From contig JAPKZD010000003.1 of the NCBI GenBank assembly GCA_026393975.1, positions 161,814 to 225,813 of the forward strand: DNA of 64,000 nucleotides. The letters run 5' to 3'. Shown in pieces: positions 20,521-46,880 of this stretch. The stretch is from Candidatus Aminicenantes bacterium. GTDB lineage: Bacteria; Acidobacteriota; Aminicenantia; Aminicenantales; Saccharicenantaceae. The translations under genes and the position numbers were made by a program. The notes under the pieces were generated by a model. It was not told the DNA's origin and did not search any database. It worked only from the letters and a program-made list of their open reading frames with translations. Position 1 is the stretch's first letter. Every line of letters starts with the position of its first letter.

Positions 20521-20593
20521 TGGCTAGGGGCGGAATCGAACCGTCGACGCAAGGATTTTCAGTCCTTCGCTCTACCGACTGAGCTACCTAGCC
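20521..20593 (-). tRNA. tRNA-Phe (anticodon GAA), CCA not encoded
   Basis: The reverse complement folds as a cloverleaf. Acceptor GGCTAGG/CCTAGCC, D-arm GCTC/GAGC, anticodon stem AAGGA/TCCTT with loop CTGAAAA (GAA), T-loop TTCGATT. There is one A.C mismatch in the T-stem. A consensus promoter sits upstream on the minus strand. Confidence 0.85.
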
Positions 20594-20654: not shown

Positions 20655-20766
20655 CATTCCCCGCCCATGAAGAACGGGGATACGGACAGGAGGTCTCTGT
20701 CCCTCCAATGGCCAGAGCCGAAGTGTCGAGCGAGCTCAAGGGCGAACGAGACAACCGCTGAACCCG

Positions 20767-20903
20767 GAGCCGAGGGGTGTCGCCGGAGGGAGCATAAAGC
20801 GGTGATTTAGACTTCCTGCGCCGGATACGCGGACTCCTCCCATCGGATCCGGCGCGGGAAGGCGTTAAAAATCAGCGCAGCGAACGAAGACGACCCCCGA
20901 GGC
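20767..20903 (+). repeat. Structured intergenic repeat, copy A (plus orientation)
   Basis: gAGCCGAGGGGTGTCGCCGGAGGGAGCATAAAGCGGTGATTTAG...GCGCCGGAT[ACGCGGACTCCTCCCATCGG]ATCCGGCGC...GTTAAAAATCAGCGCAGCGAACGAAGACGACCCCCGAGGC. Shares about 85% identity with copies C and D. It is immediately followed by TTGAAA-17-TATTCT. Confidence 0.8.
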
Positions 20904-20907
20904 GAAA

Positions 20908-20936
20908 TTGAAAAGGGGCGGTCGATATGTTATTCT
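20908..20936 (+). promoter_or_regulatory. Putative promoter of the DUF465 gene (TTGAAA-17-TATTCT) abutting repeat copy A
   Basis: TTGAAA at 20908-20913 and TATTCT at 20931-20936. GGAGGA RBS, then ATG 20959. Confidence 0.4.
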
Positions 20937-34337: not shown

Positions 34338-35123
34338 GTGAGAAAAACGGCGGGGGAGGGGAGCCGGGGAGGGGGCCTTTGGGCGTCGCGGCCGCCTAGC
34401 CTGTTGTTACCGCTAAGGGTGATCCTTCTTGCCCTGGGACTTGCCGCCGCAGCGGGATCCGTCGGTCTTCAGGACGACGCGACCTTCGCCCGAAGGCGGC
34501 AGGAGATGGTCTCATCCCAGGTCGCGGCCCGGGGTATCCACGACCCGCGGGTCCTAAAGGCCCTGGCCGGCGTCCCCCGACATCTTTTTGTCCTTCCAGC
34601 CGATAGTGACCAGGCCTACGAGGACCATCCCCTGCCGATCGCCGAGGGGCAGACGATCTCCCAGCCCTATATCGTGGCCCTCATGACCGAGTGCCTAGCC
34701 TTGAAAATAAGCGACAAGGTGCTCGAAATAGGGACCGGTTCCGGCTACCAGGCGGCTGTGCTCAGCCTGATCGTCGACCGCGTTTTCACGGTCGAGATTC
34801 ACGACACGCTAGCCCGCCGGGCGGCGGAGACGCTCGAGCGCCTGGGCTTCCGGAACGTCCGGATCCGCTCCGGCGACGGCTTCTTCGGCTGGCCCGAGGA
34901 GGCGCCCTTCGACGGCGTCATCGTCACCTGCGCCGTCCCCGAGGTCCCGCCGGCCCTCTTCGCCCAGCTCGCGGAAGGCGGACGCCTAGTCATCCCCCTC
35001 GGCGAAACCCTCACTTATCAACGCCTGACCGTTATCACCAAGAAGGCCGGAAAACCCAGCGTCCAGCAAGTCCTCGATGTCCGCTTCGTCCCCATGACCG
35101 GCGAAGCGTTAAAGAAAAAATAG
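34338..35123 (+). CDS. pcm: Protein-L-isoaspartate O-methyltransferase with N-terminal signal/TM segment
   Basis: GQTISQPYIVALMTE..LEIGTGSGYQAAVL SAM-MTase motifs. GTG start after AGGAGG. Hydrophobic N-terminal segment LLLPLRVILLALGLAAAAG. Confidence 0.8.
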   Translation: MRKTAGEGSRGGGLWASRPPSLLLPLRVILLALGLAAAAGSVGLQDDATFARRRQEMVSSQVAARGIHDPRVLKALAGVPRHLFVLPADSDQAYEDHPLPIAEGQTISQPYIVALMTECLALKISDKVLEIGTGSGYQAAVLSLIVDRVFTVEIHDTLARRAAETLERLGFRNVRIRSGDGFFGWPEEAPFDGVIVTCAVPEVPPALFAQLAEGGRLVIPLGETLTYQRLTVITKKAGKPSVQQVLDVRFVPMTGEALKKK

Positions 35124-35147
35124 TCCGAGTTTTTTTCTTCCTATTTG

Positions 35148-35262
35148 GGCCGAGGGGCATCGTTGACGGTAGCATAAAGCGGGGATTTAGCCGTCATGGG
35201 ATGGGGCAGGCCCATGACGACGTTAAAAATCCACGCGCGGACGGAGACGATACCCTGAGGCC
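35148..35262 (+). repeat. Structured intergenic repeat, copy B (plus orientation; variant central hairpin)
   Basis: GGCCGAGGGGCATCGTTGACGGTAGCATAAAGCGGGGATTTAGCC-[GTCATGGGatggggcaggCCCATGAC]-GACGTTAAAAATCCACGCGCGGACGGAGACGATACCCTGAGGCC. The ends are conserved with A, C and D; the middle is replaced by a different perfect 8-bp hairpin. Confidence 0.7.
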
Positions 35263-35304
35263 CATACGTTGCTTTTGACCGGCGACTGTGCTACTTTTTA
35301 GGCG

Positions 35305-36708
35305 ATGATGATCCGATTCGGCACCTCCGGCTGGCGGGGGGTCATGGGAGAGGAATTCACCTTCCACAACGTCCGGGTCGTCGTCCAGGCCATCGCCAAC
35401 CACCTCCGGAAAAGGTACGGGGACGGGCCGATCTCCGTGGTCGTCGGCTTCGATACGCGGTTTCTGTCGGAGCGTTACGCCTTCGAAGCGGCCAAACTCC
35501 TGGCCCGGAACCGGATCGAGGTCTTCCTGGCCGAACGGGACGCCCCGTCCCAGGCCCTGGCTTACCAGGTCATCAAGAGGAAATGCCAGGGCGGGATCAA
35601 CTTCACCGCCTCCTTCAACCCGCCGCGCTACAACGGCCTCAAGTTCAACGTCGAAACCGGCGCCCCGGCCCTCCCGGAAGTGACGGACGCCATCGAAGAG
35701 GAGATCCGGCAGCTGATGCCCGGCTTCTCCACCCTGGCCACCCACGCCCCGGGCGAATCCGTCTCCCGCATCGACTTCCAGGCGGACTATCTGGCTTTTC
35801 TCCAGGGCAAGATCGATTTCGGCGTCATGCGGACCGCGAAGCTGCGTGTCGCCGCGGACCTGCTTTATGGCACGAGCCGCGAATACCTCGACGAGATCCT
35901 CGAGGAGAACGGCGTCGAGGTCGAGAGCATCCACGGCTACGTCGACCCCTACTTCGGCGGTGTCAGCCCCTCCTGCACGGAGGAGAACCTGACCGAGCTC
36001 AAGGCCCATGTCCTCGAGACGAAGTGCCACCTCGGGGTGGCCACGGACGCGGATGGTGACCGGTTCGGCATCGTCGATGAAAAGGGGGCCTTCGTCCATC
36101 CGAACATCATCTTGGCCCTGCTTCTCAACTACCTCGCCAGGGTCAAGGGCTGGCGCGGTGGCGTCGCCCGGTCTGTCACCACGACCCATCTCATCGACCG
36201 CATCGCCCGCAAGCACGACCTGCCGCTGACCAAGACGAAGGTCGGCTTCAAATACATGGCCGACCTGTTCCTCAAGGGCCGGATCATGTTTGGCGGGGAG
36301 GAGAGCGCCTGCATCGCCGTCAAGGACCACCTCCCCGAAAAAGACGGGATCTTTGCCGGGCTCTTGGTCGCAGAGATGATCGCCGCCACCGGCCGTAGCC
36401 TGGGCGGGCTTCGCGAGGCCCTTTTCAAGGAATACGGAGAAATGGTTAGCGGTGAGCGCAACCTGCCCCTGACCCCGGAGCGGGCAAAGAGGCTGAAGGC
36501 GCTCATCCAGGATCCTCCGTCGAAGCTGGGCCGCCGGAAGGTCGTCTCCGTCGAGACGATCGACGGCCTCAAGCTCGATTTCGACGAGGACCGCTGGATC
36601 GTCCTCCGCCTGTCCGGGACCCAGCCGCTCATCCGCTGCTACGCCGAAGCCGAGACGCGCGAGGAGGTCGAGGCCCTCTTGAAAAAGGGGCTGGAGGCGG
36701 TCAGGTGA
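35305..36708 (+). CDS. Phosphoglucomutase/phosphomannomutase (alpha-D-phosphohexomutase) family protein
   Basis: 467 aa. FGTSGWRG N-terminus. The active-site loop reads TASFNPPRYNGLKF, where the canonical motif is [ST]ASHNPP.YNG.K. A metal-binding DADGDR loop is present. Confidence 0.85.
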   Translation: MMIRFGTSGWRGVMGEEFTFHNVRVVVQAIANHLRKRYGDGPISVVVGFDTRFLSERYAFEAAKLLARNRIEVFLAERDAPSQALAYQVIKRKCQGGINFTASFNPPRYNGLKFNVETGAPALPEVTDAIEEEIRQLMPGFSTLATHAPGESVSRIDFQADYLAFLQGKIDFGVMRTAKLRVAADLLYGTSREYLDEILEENGVEVESIHGYVDPYFGGVSPSCTEENLTELKAHVLETKCHLGVATDADGDRFGIVDEKGAFVHPNIILALLLNYLARVKGWRGGVARSVTTTHLIDRIARKHDLPLTKTKVGFKYMADLFLKGRIMFGGEESACIAVKDHLPEKDGIFAGLLVAEMIAATGRSLGGLREALFKEYGEMVSGERNLPLTPERAKRLKALIQDPPSKLGRRKVVSVETIDGLKLDFDEDRWIVLRLSGTQPLIRCYAEAETREEVEALLKKGLEAVR

Positions 36709-42136: not shown

Positions 42137-42162
42137 CCCCTGAGGACCCGCCCCCGCAGCGG

Positions 42163-42299
42163 GGCCTCGGGGATCGTCTCCGTCCGCTGCGGTGATTCTT
42201 AACGCTATCCCGGGCCGGATTCGATGGGGGGAGTCCGCGTATCCGGCCCGAGCTAGCTAAATCACCGCTTTATGCTCCCTCCGACGATTCCCCTCGGCC
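42163..42299 (-). repeat. Structured intergenic repeat, copy C (minus orientation), in the 3' region of the RRM-protein gene
   Basis: The reverse complement aligns with copies A and D: GGCCGAGGGGAATCGTCGGAGGGAGCATAAAGCGGTGATTTAGC..GGGCCGGAT[ACGCGGACTCCCCCATCGA]ATCCGGCCC..GCGTTAAGAATCACCGCAGCGGACGGAGACGATCCCCGAGGCC. Confidence 0.8.
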
Positions 42300-42327
42300 C
42301 CGATTTCTGCGGTGTCGGGCTATTAGA

Positions 42328-42362
42328 GGGGACATGCCTTCCCAGTACGTGTCCCCCTTTTT
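42328..42362 (+). terminator. Rho-independent terminator downstream of the RRM-protein gene and repeat C
   Basis: GGGGACA-(15-nt loop)-TGTCCCC followed by TTTTT. Confidence 0.55.
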
Positions 42363-42681
42363 CATCTCCCCTCTGCGTCAAAAGGCACTCCATTCCATTG
42401 GCTGCAATGCTTTCTGTGTCGCAAGACGCCACCCGGGCTGAGACAGGGACCGTCCAGAGCCCCCGTAGCGGAGGGGGACCCATCGGCTTGCCGATGGGGG
42501 AACCGCCGGGACTGGTTCCCAGGGGGGCCGGGGGATATGGATGGTCCCTGTTTCAGCCTAAAAGGGTGGCGCCAGCGATTCTTGCCTGTTCCTGGGGTGA
42601 ACCTTTGGTCATCTCGCTTCGTTGTACCCAGTGAAGTCCCAGGAGAGGAGTTTAGAAGTGTCGGACCGGCTGAGTGTTCCC

Positions 42682-45020: not shown

Positions 45021-45404
45021 ATGAAAAAAATAGCGCTCGTCATCTTAGGTGTCTTCTGTCTGGGAATTCTTGCCGCCCCGGCCGCCGCGGCCAACCACAA
45101 CGACTTCAAGGTCATTCAAAAAGCCGTCAAGCAGAACCCGGCCTACGAGGAGGGCAAGGAAGTCAAGTGGTTCAAGGTCCTCATCACGGACGGCAAGACG
45201 AATGACGCCAAGGTCAAGGTGACCCTGCCCATCGCGCTCGTGGAGGTCCTCATCAACTGCACCGACAGCCGGCACTTCAAAATCGACGACGGGGACTGCG
45301 ACATCGACCTCAAGGCCGTCTGGGCCGCGCTGAAGCAGGCCGGTCCCATGGCCCTCATCGAAATCCGCGACGACGGCGCCCTCATCAAGGTCTGGCTGGA
45401 ATAA
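45021..45404 (+). CDS. Small secreted protein; paralog of the C-terminal domain of the preceding gene (ends DDGALIKVWLE)
   Basis: 127 aa. Signal peptide (LGILAAPAAA). Shares ..K(I/V)-I..G...(I/L)P-AL..L....D(L/I).K(I/A)V..L...L..I.DDG..I..W.E with 44150..44998. GAGGAG RBS. Confidence 0.6.
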   Translation: MKKIALVILGVFCLGILAAPAAAANHNDFKVIQKAVKQNPAYEEGKEVKWFKVLITDGKTNDAKVKVTLPIALVEVLINCTDSRHFKIDDGDCDIDLKAVWAALKQAGPMALIEIRDDGALIKVWLE

Positions 45405-45436
45405 GAGAGAAAAACTCTTCTTTCCACTAATTATAG

Positions 45437-45574
45437 GGCCGAGGGGTGTCGTCGGCGGAAGCATAAAGCGGTGATTTAGCCTGCCCGGGACGGAGACGCG
45501 GACTCCTCCCATCGACTTCGGACCGGGAAGGCGTTAAGAATCACCGCAGCGGACGGGGACGATATCCCGAGGCC
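45437..45574 (+). repeat. Structured intergenic repeat, copy D (plus orientation), abutting the leuC promoter
   Basis: GGCCGAGGGGTGTCGTCGGCGGAAGCATAAAGCGGTGATTTAGCCTGCCCGGGACGGAGACGCGGACTCCTCCCATCGACTTCGGACCGGGAAGGCGTTAAGAATCACCGCAGCGGACGGGGACGATATCCCGAGGCC. Confidence 0.8.
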
Positions 45575-45577
45575 ACG

Positions 45578-45606
45578 TTGACAAGGCCTCCGGGCCCCCA
45601 TAAAAT
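45578..45606 (+). promoter_or_regulatory. Putative sigma70 promoter of leuCDB (TTGACA-17-TAAAAT)
   Basis: Consensus -35 at 45578-45583, a 17-nt spacer (aggcctccgggccccca, self-complementary), -10 at 45601-45606. AGGAGG RBS, then TTG start at 45627. Confidence 0.5.
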
Positions 45607-45626
45607 GGGGGAGCCAGGAGGTATAT

Positions 45627-46880
45627 TTGGGCAAAACGCTGACGGAGAAGGTCCTCGGCCGCAAGGCGGGGAAGGACGTCCAAGCCGGAGAAGTCATCAC
45701 GATTTCCCCGGACGTCATCCTCTCCCACGATAATTCGGCGGCCATCATCCAGGAGTTCCGCAAGCTCGGCGTCAAGAAGGTCAGGGCGCCCGAGAAGATC
45801 GTTATCGTCCTCGACCACATCGTCCCCGCCTCCGACGAAAAGTACGCCCAGAACCACAAGTCCATTCGTGAGTTCGTCGCCGAGCAGGGGATCCCCAATT
45901 TCTTCGACATCAACGCCGGCATCTGTCACCAGGTCCTGCCCGAACAGGGATTCGCCCTTCCCGGCAAGGTCATCGTTGGCAGCGACTCCCACACGCCGAG
46001 CTATGGCGCGCTCGGGGCCTTCGCCACCGGCATCGGCCGGACCGAGACCGCCTGCACGTGGGCCACGGACGAGATCTGGCTCCGGGTGCCGGAAACCATG
46101 CGCATCGACCTCTCGGGTCGTTTCCGGGCCGGAGTATTCGCCAAGGACCTCAGCCTGAAGCTCATCGGGGACCACGGCGCCGAGATGGCCAACTACAGGG
46201 CCGTCGAGTTCGCCGGGCCCGCGGCCGGCGATTTCAGCGTCGGGGCCCGGCTGACCCTGGCCAACATGTCCGCCGAGATGGGCGCCAAGAACGGCTATTT
46301 TGCCCCGGACGCGAAGACCCTGAAATGGCTCGAAGGCCGGGCCCGAGGGCCTTTCGTCGTCGCCTCGTCGGACCCGGACGCCCGCTTCGAATCCATCCTC
46401 GCCTACGACCTCGATGCGCTCGAGCCCCAGGTCGCCTGCCCGCACACGGTCGACAACGTCAAGCCCATCGGGGCCGTCGCCGGCAAGCCCGTCAACCAGG
46501 TCCTCATCGGTACGTGCACCAACGGGCGCCTCGAAGACCTCGAGGCCGCCGCGGCTATTTTCAAGGGCCGCAAGGTCCATTCGGGCGTGCGCTGCCTCGT
46601 CATTCCCGCCTCGTGGGAAGTCTACCGGGAGGCGCTCAAAAGCGGCGCCCTCGCCATTCTGGCCGATGCCGGATGCGTCATCCTCAACTCGGGCTGCGGG
46701 CCGTGCCTCGGCGCCCACGAGGGCATCATGGCCGCGGGCGAGATCTGCCTCAGCACGTCGAACCGCAACTTCCGGGGCCGCATGGGCCACCGCGATTCGG
46801 AGATCTACCTGGCCTCGCCGGCTACGGCCGCGGCCACCGCTGTCGCGGGCAAGATCGCCGACCCGAGGGAATTCGCATGA
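45627..46880 (+). CDS. leuC: 3-isopropylmalate dehydratase large subunit (short, LeuC type-2 / aconitase family)
   Basis: 417 aa. Aconitase-family Cys ligands ([17 protein letters not shown]). TTG start. Confidence 0.9.

Follow-up and report, generated by a model that had tools for sequence, protein, structure and literature searches.

The 64,000-nt stretch of Candidatus Aminicenantes DNA analysed here (the window) carries four copies of a structured repeat of about 140 nt in its intergenic DNA. Copy 1 (family A) occupies 20767-20904 on the + strand, in a divergent promoter region that runs from a tRNA gene (20521-20593, - strand) to a gene start near 20927/20959 (+). Copy 2 (35147-35263, +) lies between the co-directional genes 34419-35123 and 35305-36708, copy 3 (42162-42300, -) has the strand opposite to both of its flanking genes, and copy 4 (45436-45575, +) is again set between co-directional genes, 45021-45404 and 45627-46880, the second of which encodes the large subunit of an aconitase-family dehydratase. 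An earlier note on this DNA had reported a four-copy family at these places, and all four copies are there, displaced by only 1-2 nt. They align over ~140 nt with a mean column identity of 79%, and the 19-mer GCATAAAGCGGNGATTTAG has four exact occurrences in the window where shuffled sequences give an expectation of 0.02.

A covariance model (CM) built from 88 family members (model R1; 141 positions, 46 pairs) was run over both strands of the window with filters off. It returned exactly four matches of 93-164 bits, which are the same four copies: 20765-20905 (137 bits), 35145-35263 (93 bits), 42162-42302 (163.8 bits; the nearest of the window copies to the family consensus) and 45434-45575 (143.5 bits). 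The next best matches were the antisense strands of these copies (17-37 bits), followed by noise. Each copy folds as one long irregular hairpin (-58 to -78 kcal/mol, z -4.3 to -6.9 relative to shuffles), with minimum free energies for copies 1 to 4 of -67, -58, -78.4 and -77.4 kcal/mol and z-scores of -4.3, -6.3, -6.8 and -6.9, respectively. That the four copies are genuine members of one repeat family is confirmed.

The arms GCGGTGATT and AATCACCGC, previously described as perfectly paired, are so in copies 3 and 4 only; copy 1 (arm variant AATCAGCGC) and copy 2 (GCGGGGATT/AATCCACGC) have one mismatch apiece. Copy 2 is shorter by 22 nt: in place of the usual apical domain it has a distinct and shorter variant, which is not a product of decay. 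This short-apex subtype, with a GACGGT / CGC-GCGG internal-loop variant in copy 2, has the same apex again in L078, L095 and L097 (L-numbers denote loci from the genome scan described below). Copy 1 is preceded at 20735-20766 by a flank, GCGAACGAGACAACCGCTGAACCCGG, that also precedes copies in loci of other genomes (L001, L031, L081, L084, L100, L102 and L079) and that resembles the element's 3' loop region GCGAACGGAGACGA plus linker. In L004, L018 and L084 the flank is clearly where a partial copy in front of the full one ends, and copy 1 may therefore be the rear member of an old tandem.

Recurrence and anatomy of the repeat

Scanning one genome of each species for an exact pattern yielded at least 108 stretches. 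Five are chance 18-mer matches that lack the rest of the element (L025, L048, L099, L103 and L108), and the remaining stretches carry the whole of it, which places the family in at least 23 species-level assemblies with more than 100 copies. The earlier note had allowed that the similarity might be local and fail to recur elsewhere; the >100 further copies in other genomes show that it recurs. The assemblies are labelled Candidatus Aminicenantes, Aminicenantia, Aminicenantales, 'Acidobacteria bacterium' and, for four metagenome-assembled genomes (MAGs), 'uncultured Eubacteriales'. This last label, borne by L002, L005, L007 and the other CAZGJS, CAZZCH, CAZFTV and CAZIQR loci, is probably unreliable, because syntenic orthologues in these MAGs are ~95% identical at the amino acid level to those of Aminicenantes MAGs. 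The window, too, resembles Aminicenantes DNA, the protein of 45627-46880 being 94-97% identical to proteins from Acidobacteria or Aminicenantes MAGs. Copies within one genome have a mean identity of 0.82.

The viral contigs scanned with the pattern gave no match. A search of the whole window against Rfam 15 at the gathering score had the tRNA at 20521-20593 (-) as its sole match, and at E≤10 (copies 3 and 4, and L076) nothing overlapped a copy above chance. Nor did literature searches on Aminicenantes repeats, REPIN/RAYT and ERIC turn up a description of the family, in keeping with the earlier remark that it was not recognised as a described one. The element is a previously undescribed, hairpin-forming repeat family of ~140 nt that is confined to Candidatus Aminicenantes.

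The anatomy of the element was read from alignments A3, A4 and A6 (88 copies). The basal ~45 nt on each side are almost invariant, and the ends are conserved at ≥90% of columns. From the outside inwards, the 5' strand consists of the stem GGCC-GA-GGGG, a 5-6 bp stem (A)TCGTC, the internal loop GGAGGGA, a GC pair step, the loop AUAAA, a 9-10 bp stem GCGGUGAUU and UAG; the 3' strand returns through GCGU, a 4-nt variable bulge, AAUCACCGC, A, GC, GGACGGA, GACGA(U) and CCCC-GA-GGCC. The outer GGCC...GGCC termini do close the structure, as had been proposed, but the closing stem GGCC-GA-GGGG / CCCC-GA-GGCC holds a conserved tandem G.A mismatch. Fixed asymmetric loops (AGCAUAAA facing A, and GGAGGGA facing GGACGGA) and several tandem G.A motifs recur throughout the family.

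The apical third is a sequence-variable stem of 12-18 pairs that exists in at least four forms, including the short form of copy 2, and extends in L079, L102, L004, L080, L015, L002, L062 and L111 to long forms of 200-380 nt with other repeats nested within them. Insertions are tolerated at the apex and at one bulge only, and the internal loops are invariant. At this bulge (GAAGAAT^...^ATCACCGC) an insert of 105 nt stands at the identical position in L032, L065 and L076, which are unrelated loci in three genomes. The insert (L076:2131-2237) consists of two hairpins, TAAACCCATTCGACTCCCCGGCC...GGTGGCAGCGAACGTA, with a possible AT duplication, and gave no match in Rfam (best E 0.5). A pseudoknot between apical CUCCUCC and GGAGG of the 5' flank was considered and rejected, because this 5' flank occurs with every apical variant.

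Most copies are enclosed in an outer frame, termed P0, that adds a further stem of covarying 8-mers (GGCTGCGG/CCGCAGCC, GGCCGACG/CGTCGGCC, GGCCGTGG/CCACGGCC and GCGATGCC/GGCATCGC in alignment A3), followed by GACGG and a small hairpin. In the window a version of the frame surrounds copy 3, extending it to 42154-42312 (-) through the pairing of CCGCAG (42312-42307) with CTGCGG (42159-42154); copies 1, 2 and 4 are without it. Since the frame in L112 holds a different cargo, P0 is probably a separate palindromic module that hosts the element. A regular-expression search for empty frames without cargo returned only chance GC-rich matches in coding DNA.

Covariation, strand and genomic setting

In the CM alignment, 90.4% of cells are standard pairs, compared with 33-45% after a shift of the partners by 1-3 columns. 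In 29 of the 46 pairs both sides have changed (224 cells), and none of 500 shuffles reached any of five covariation measures; the alignment was fitted to the model, which favours pairing, and the sequences are related, but the margins are large even so. Copy 3 and the orthologous copy in L003 differ by in-situ double changes at inner-stem pairs. Among nonstandard cells, G.U/U.G outnumber A.C/C.A by 173 to 26 and G.A/A.G outnumber C.U/U.C by 252 to 15, and the tandem G.A of the inner stem alternates with G-C/C-G. The sense strands of the 88 copies score 107-164 bits and the antisense strands at most 44 bits. In the window, the antisense strands of all four copies fold worse than the sense strands (z -2.1 to -5.2). 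The mismatch classes are strongly one-sided, and it is therefore the fold of one defined strand that is kept.

Much of this is what one would expect of a structured non-coding RNA with many copies, be it a small RNA or a domain acting in cis, whose sense hairpin binds a protein through its tandem G.A motifs. The compensatory changes, the excess of G.U over A.C, the restriction of purine-purine tandem mismatches to one strand, the better folding of the sense strand and the invariant loops, with insertions confined to the apex and one bulge, all speak for such an RNA, and about a quarter of the copies lie in sense just 3' of a gene and would be co-transcribed with it. G.T and tandem G.A are stable in DNA hairpins too, however, so strand asymmetry alone does not imply RNA. 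The apical loops, moreover, are not of the GNRA or UNCG types common in structured RNAs, the absence of an Rfam match also counts against an RNA, and so does the existence of truncated and nested copies.

The genomic setting of the copies argues further against transcription of the element. Genes were called with a codon-bias caller trained on the loci, and among the 108 matches listed, none lies inside a predicted open reading frame (ORF), and both orientations occur. Genes were called to either side of 80 copies, of which 34 are in divergent, 45 in co-directional and 1 in convergent regions; among intergenic regions of these loci that have no element, 14-17% are convergent (depletion P~1e-4). 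Orientation with respect to the flanking genes is random, with 22 sense and 23 antisense copies in co-directional regions, and there is no bias with local GC skew (45:44) or with the coding strand. A scan of 82 copies for sigma-70-type promoters, at a laxer threshold and with other sigma factors outside its reach, found none directed into the element at any consistent position; on both sides the promoters point away. No T-tract terminator follows the copies. Furthermore, for 42% of the copies the setting is a pair of divergent promoters, between which one expects no transcript, and such copies are conserved even so (for example L023/L104). The small-RNA alternative of the earlier note is weakened by the random orientation and the missing inward promoter, and we consider a structured RNA unlikely. 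We infer instead that the folded species is DNA, in the form of a single-stranded intermediate or an extruded hairpin, because the fold is strand-specific, is independent of the direction in which neighbouring DNA is transcribed and replicated, and has no inward promoter.

The copies are closely associated with promoters that lead away from them. Of 80 copies, 26 have an outward sigma-70-like promoter on the 3' side (median distance 31 nt; 2-44 nt in 18 of the 26), and for the 5' side the figures are 23 of 84 copies and a median of 73 nt; typically, the 3' end of the element is 2-45 nt from an outward -35 box or adjoins a stop codon. In the window, TTGACA-17-TAAAAT (45578-45606) begins 3 nt past the 3' end of copy 4 and TTGAAA-17-TATTCT (20908-20936) begins 4 nt past that of copy 1, on whose other side is a promoter-like site of the tRNA gene (20654->20626). 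A weaker TTGCTT-17-TACTTT (35269-35297), below the scan threshold, begins 6 nt past copy 2 and is kept in L082; it ends only 7 nt before the ATG of 35305-36708, which suggests a leaderless mRNA. The two sides of the element differ, in that noncoding DNA is ~130 nt longer on the 5' than on the 3' side and is rich there in other repeats, and 36 of 99 upstream flanks fall in one similarity cluster, compared with 8 of 91 in the largest downstream cluster.

These observations bring in a second alternative, a non-mobile regulatory or architectural DNA site, such as a cruciform formed under negative supercoiling behind active promoters or a site for a nucleoid or regulatory protein, whose many copies would reflect selection and not transposition. 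The adjoining -35 boxes, the independence of orientation and the purifying selection on individual copies (below) are consistent with it. Under the twin-domain model of transcription, negative supercoiling accumulates at defined places with respect to genes, and the enrichment of copies in divergent regions and near-absence from convergent ones would match these sites. A double-stranded site or symmetric cruciform, however, predicts no excess of G.T over A.C, which is seen here at 173:26, and the gain, loss and replacement of copies, together with nested, tandem and truncated ones, need a copying mechanism. Each lineage, in addition, has its own dominant subfamily. We regard a non-mobile DNA site as rather improbable, because of this turnover.

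Turnover and the nature of the repeat

Comparison of orthologous sites shows gain, loss and replacement of copies. The promoter and start of gene 45627-46880 are kept base for base in five genomes, and all DNA upstream of CGTTGACAAG differs. At this site the window has copy 4, L109 (protein 94% identical) has no copy and a GGGACTGTCCC hairpin instead, L112 has a P0 frame with other cargo on the other strand, and L111 has a 380-nt variant, also on the other strand; copy 4 and L109 thus form a presence/absence polymorphism. The region 45578-45626 and its counterparts in L109-L112 are nearly identical across promoter, AGGAGG ribosome-binding site and gene start. Upstream of 35305-36708, the window carries the short subtype and L082 a full-length, framed subtype preceded by a second repeat (family B, below), and homology between the two resumes at CGTTGCTTTT, immediately past copy 2. 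Junctions of a partial and a full copy in tandem occur in L004, L018 and L084 and head-to-head pairs in L002, L015, L062 and L080, and nested and truncated copies are present as well.

Many copy sites are nonetheless common to several species, with orthologous sites in up to 4-5 of them. Where the same subtype has been retained, orthologous copies are 92-99% identical, compared with 64-73% at 4-fold degenerate sites of the flanking genes, a contrast that would also suit a functional RNA. The copies of L058, L094 and L101 are 98-99% identical (4-fold sites 72-73%) and those of L031 and L081 97% (72%). Some sets of orthologues carry locus-specific variants, such as the apex GGAGACGTTCACCGGCTCC, that are absent from the sampled paralogues; with the reservation that the sampling of paralogues is incomplete, this argues for conservation in place and not for conversion from a pool.

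On balance we favour the view that the element is an old, vertically maintained, interspersed intergenic palindromic repeat, similar in kind to REPINs, ERICs and REP- or MITE-like elements (MITE, miniature inverted-repeat transposable element). Its turnover and nesting and its REPIN/ERIC-type organization lead us to class it as a new family among such repeats. The earlier note had offered a REP- or MITE-like element as one of its possibilities, and it is this branch that the intergenic location, both orientations, presence/absence, subtype replacement, nesting, truncation and tandems support; target-site duplications and a related transposase, the hallmarks of a MITE, were sought and not found. 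The family would have spread in the form of a DNA hairpin, single-stranded or extruded, on which a structure-specific enzyme acts in trans, and slow turnover would continue by this route; for the enzyme, an HUH/Y1-type transposase is the obvious candidate class. New copies would tend to land in or beside other palindromes, and those retained would owe this to selection for a use, upstream of promoters, of the hairpin itself or of a protein that binds its loops.

Of the known systems, ERIC (IRU) is a long imperfect palindrome of ~127 bp in enterobacteria that is intergenic, occurs in both orientations, is conserved across species and has size variants that arise from insertions at fixed internal sites; its function may depend on context, and it is not known to have a transposase. 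The element shares these traits, and the likeness is one of how it works only, since the sequence and phylum are unrelated and the conserved motifs differ. ERICs, furthermore, are found mainly in transcribed regions, where they act on mRNA stability, whereas the element lies upstream of promoters, and to our knowledge a strand-specific tandem G.A architecture is not a described feature of ERIC. With Correia/NEMIS and other MITEs the element has in common a length of ~100-150 bp, an intergenic and foldable nature, many copies and a location near promoters; unlike them it has no clear terminal inverted repeat with target-site duplication and no related autonomous insertion sequence that we could find, and its copies are old and diverged.

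With REPINs, which have conserved ends, a variable spacer and compensatory changes (Bertels & Rainey 2011, PMC3116915), the element shares a length of ~100-150 nt, a strictly extragenic location, two conserved ends with a less conserved spacer, and a long hairpin in single-stranded DNA or RNA. Common compensatory changes, tens to hundreds of diverged copies, long vertical inheritance, and clusters and other higher-order groupings are likewise features of both (PMC3116915; 10.1101/2021.07.10.451892). REPINs are described as random in extragenic space, whereas the element is scarce in convergent regions and has its copies concentrated ahead of promoters, and no cognate RAYT flanked by the same repeat was seen in the 0.86 Mb sampled. 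GTAG/CGTC REPs are units of 20-40 bp with an unpaired tag and a stem of 5-13 bp; their head-to-head dimers, with spacers of 20-100 bp, fold as one large stem-loop and occur inserted within other palindromes, CGTC REPs are without a dedicated transposase, and in Acidobacteria there are Y1 transposases flanked by long terminal inverted repeats ('TIRtrons') (Di Nocera et al. 2013, PMC3733652). The position of the element inside the P0 frame recalls such REP dimers in palindromes, and a Y1 gene in L075 recalls the TIRtrons, but the CGTC/GACG of the element forms part of a paired stem, and a small unit of the REP kind cannot be marked off in it.

Our search for an enzyme covered the window and 112 loci. 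E. coli RayT and IS608 TnpA, as queries, gave a best E of 0.45 in tblastn against all loci. A scan for the HUH...Y motif identified two Y1 ORFs, L075:1323-2013(-) and L052:3-611(+), both of lower GC (0.53). The L075 protein matches Pfam Y1_Tnp (PF01797) with 36.6 bits (cut-off 23) and the NCBIfam REP-associated tyrosine transposase (NF047646) with 47.8 bits, which is below the cut-off of 80, and perfect 21-bp inverted repeats, GGGGACACAATACCAATTTCC, border its gene in the manner of a TIRtron. Recurrent protein clusters and long ORFs in gene-free stretches gave no further candidate, no transposase-family search having been run on them. By these routes (Y1 queries, HUH/Y scan, protein clustering and long ORFs) no autonomous insertion sequence with the same ends was seen in the window or the 112 loci. 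Family B and the element as the two ends of one insertion sequence were considered and rejected, because the 3.9 kb between them in L097 consist of ordinary genes.

An integron attC site, or the end or guide-RNA scaffold of an IS200/IS605 (TnpB/IscB) element, would likewise be strand-specific, folded, ~60-150 nt long and possibly multi-copy, and the resemblance goes no further. The copies are scattered among housekeeping genes in both orientations and not in one-directional cassette arrays, no GTTRRRY core stands at their boundaries, Rfam gave no HEARO or IS605-orfB match even at E≤10, and no tnpB, iscB or intI-like gene was found among the recurrent protein clusters or long uncalled ORFs of the 0.86 Mb. 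We consider this idea very improbable and largely refuted.

Several points weigh against a REPIN/ERIC-like repeat. The ends are only ~60% mirror images of one another (A4 consensus) and their asymmetry is conserved, whereas a REPIN is a symmetric REP doublet, and the element has neither the GTAG nor the unpaired CGTC tag typical of REPs, which are short imperfect palindromes (PMC3733652). No enzyme was linked to the family in the 0.86 Mb of loci sampled: only two Y1 genes were seen, they are 1.3 and 3.9 kb from the nearest copy, and the flanking repeat GGGGACACAATACCAATTTCC is unrelated to the element. No target-site duplication was detected at copy boundaries; the termini, GGCCGAGGGG and CCCCGAGGCC, are 8/10 complementary and no direct repeats flank the copies, the left flank being non-homologous in the only empty-site comparison, which makes this a weak test. 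The best identity within a genome, ~0.93-0.95 among sampled copies, shows no recent burst. Strong purifying selection on single copies is not predicted for a purely selfish element and would suit a functional RNA or DNA site just as well. Finally, the gene calls come from our own codon-bias caller and the loci are a sample, confined to the matches listed.

Repeats of this kind are not described as standing just upstream of promoters while being nearly absent from convergent regions, nor as having single copies under purifying selection. Together, the position and the selection suggest that retained copies do something where they are, and keep alive the regulatory-DNA branch of the earlier note. 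It is possible, if tentative, that the element is more than a selfish repeat, namely a host-functional module, structured as a single strand, that stands upstream of promoters throughout Aminicenantes. The sense hairpin would then present its invariant tandem G.A loops to a dedicated protein, after extrusion from negatively supercoiled DNA or, less probably, as RNA, and would influence the promoters next to it, for instance as a supercoil-sensitive insulator or regulator. Such a function would explain the strand-specific fold, the convergent near-absence and the 92-99% identity of orthologues in the face of near-saturated 4-fold sites.

Aminicenantes are an uncultured lineage, and descriptions of repeat families or non-coding elements in it seem to be lacking. 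The element offers a sequence marker for the lineage, and its CM can be used in masking and annotation, where it would avoid miscalls as riboswitches or small RNAs. Two of its properties were unexpected: single copies are nearly unchanged across species whose synonymous sites are near saturation, and the fold is tied to one strand yet independent of the direction of transcription. If the copies do have a host function at promoters, the element would be a rare REP/ERIC-like repeat with a testable role; if the family is a replicator kept by an enzyme, it would extend the REPIN type of life style to a distant phylum and a different architecture.

Other repeats around the copies

Together with at least four other repeat modules beside or inside it, the element fills much of the promoter-proximal intergenic DNA. 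GGGGACA...TGTCCCC hairpins are common, and 21 of 85 copies of the element have one within 200 nt on the 5' side, compared with 5 of 85 on the 3' side. Short hairpins of the form GGGGACA(Y)G...C(R)TGTCCCC or AAGAGGGACTGTCCCC...GGGGACTGTCCCTCTT, found at 42310-42350(-) of the window, in L068, L069, L073 and L107 and at L109:2410-2455, resemble the inverted repeats around the Y1 gene. The Y1 gene and these common, related hairpins indicate that the genomes have a single-strand-DNA transposase with a repeat family of its own; nothing ties Y1 to the element.

Family B is a second structured repeat of ~125-150 nt, represented in the window at 42430-42570(-), with the layout GACGCCRCCC...GGGAACCAGTCCCGGCGGTTCCCCCATCGGCAAGCCGATGGG...CCTCCGCTACGGGGG...GGGYGGCGTC. 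Its stems covary (CCATCGGC/GCCGATGG in place of CCATCAGC/GCTGATGG or CCGCCG/CGGCGG), it gave no match in Rfam, and it occurs also in L003, L082 (two copies), L004, L020, L024, L038, L047, L077 and others. At least nine loci have it 27-180 nt upstream of the element's 5' end, with both repeats in one orientation, and in L024 it sits within the apex of an antisense long copy. A further module, E (...GCACTTCTGCCGGTCGCTTC(N)GAAGACTCCGCTCCCTGCCGGCG...), stands beside or inside copies in L032, L061, L078, L081, L107 and L111.

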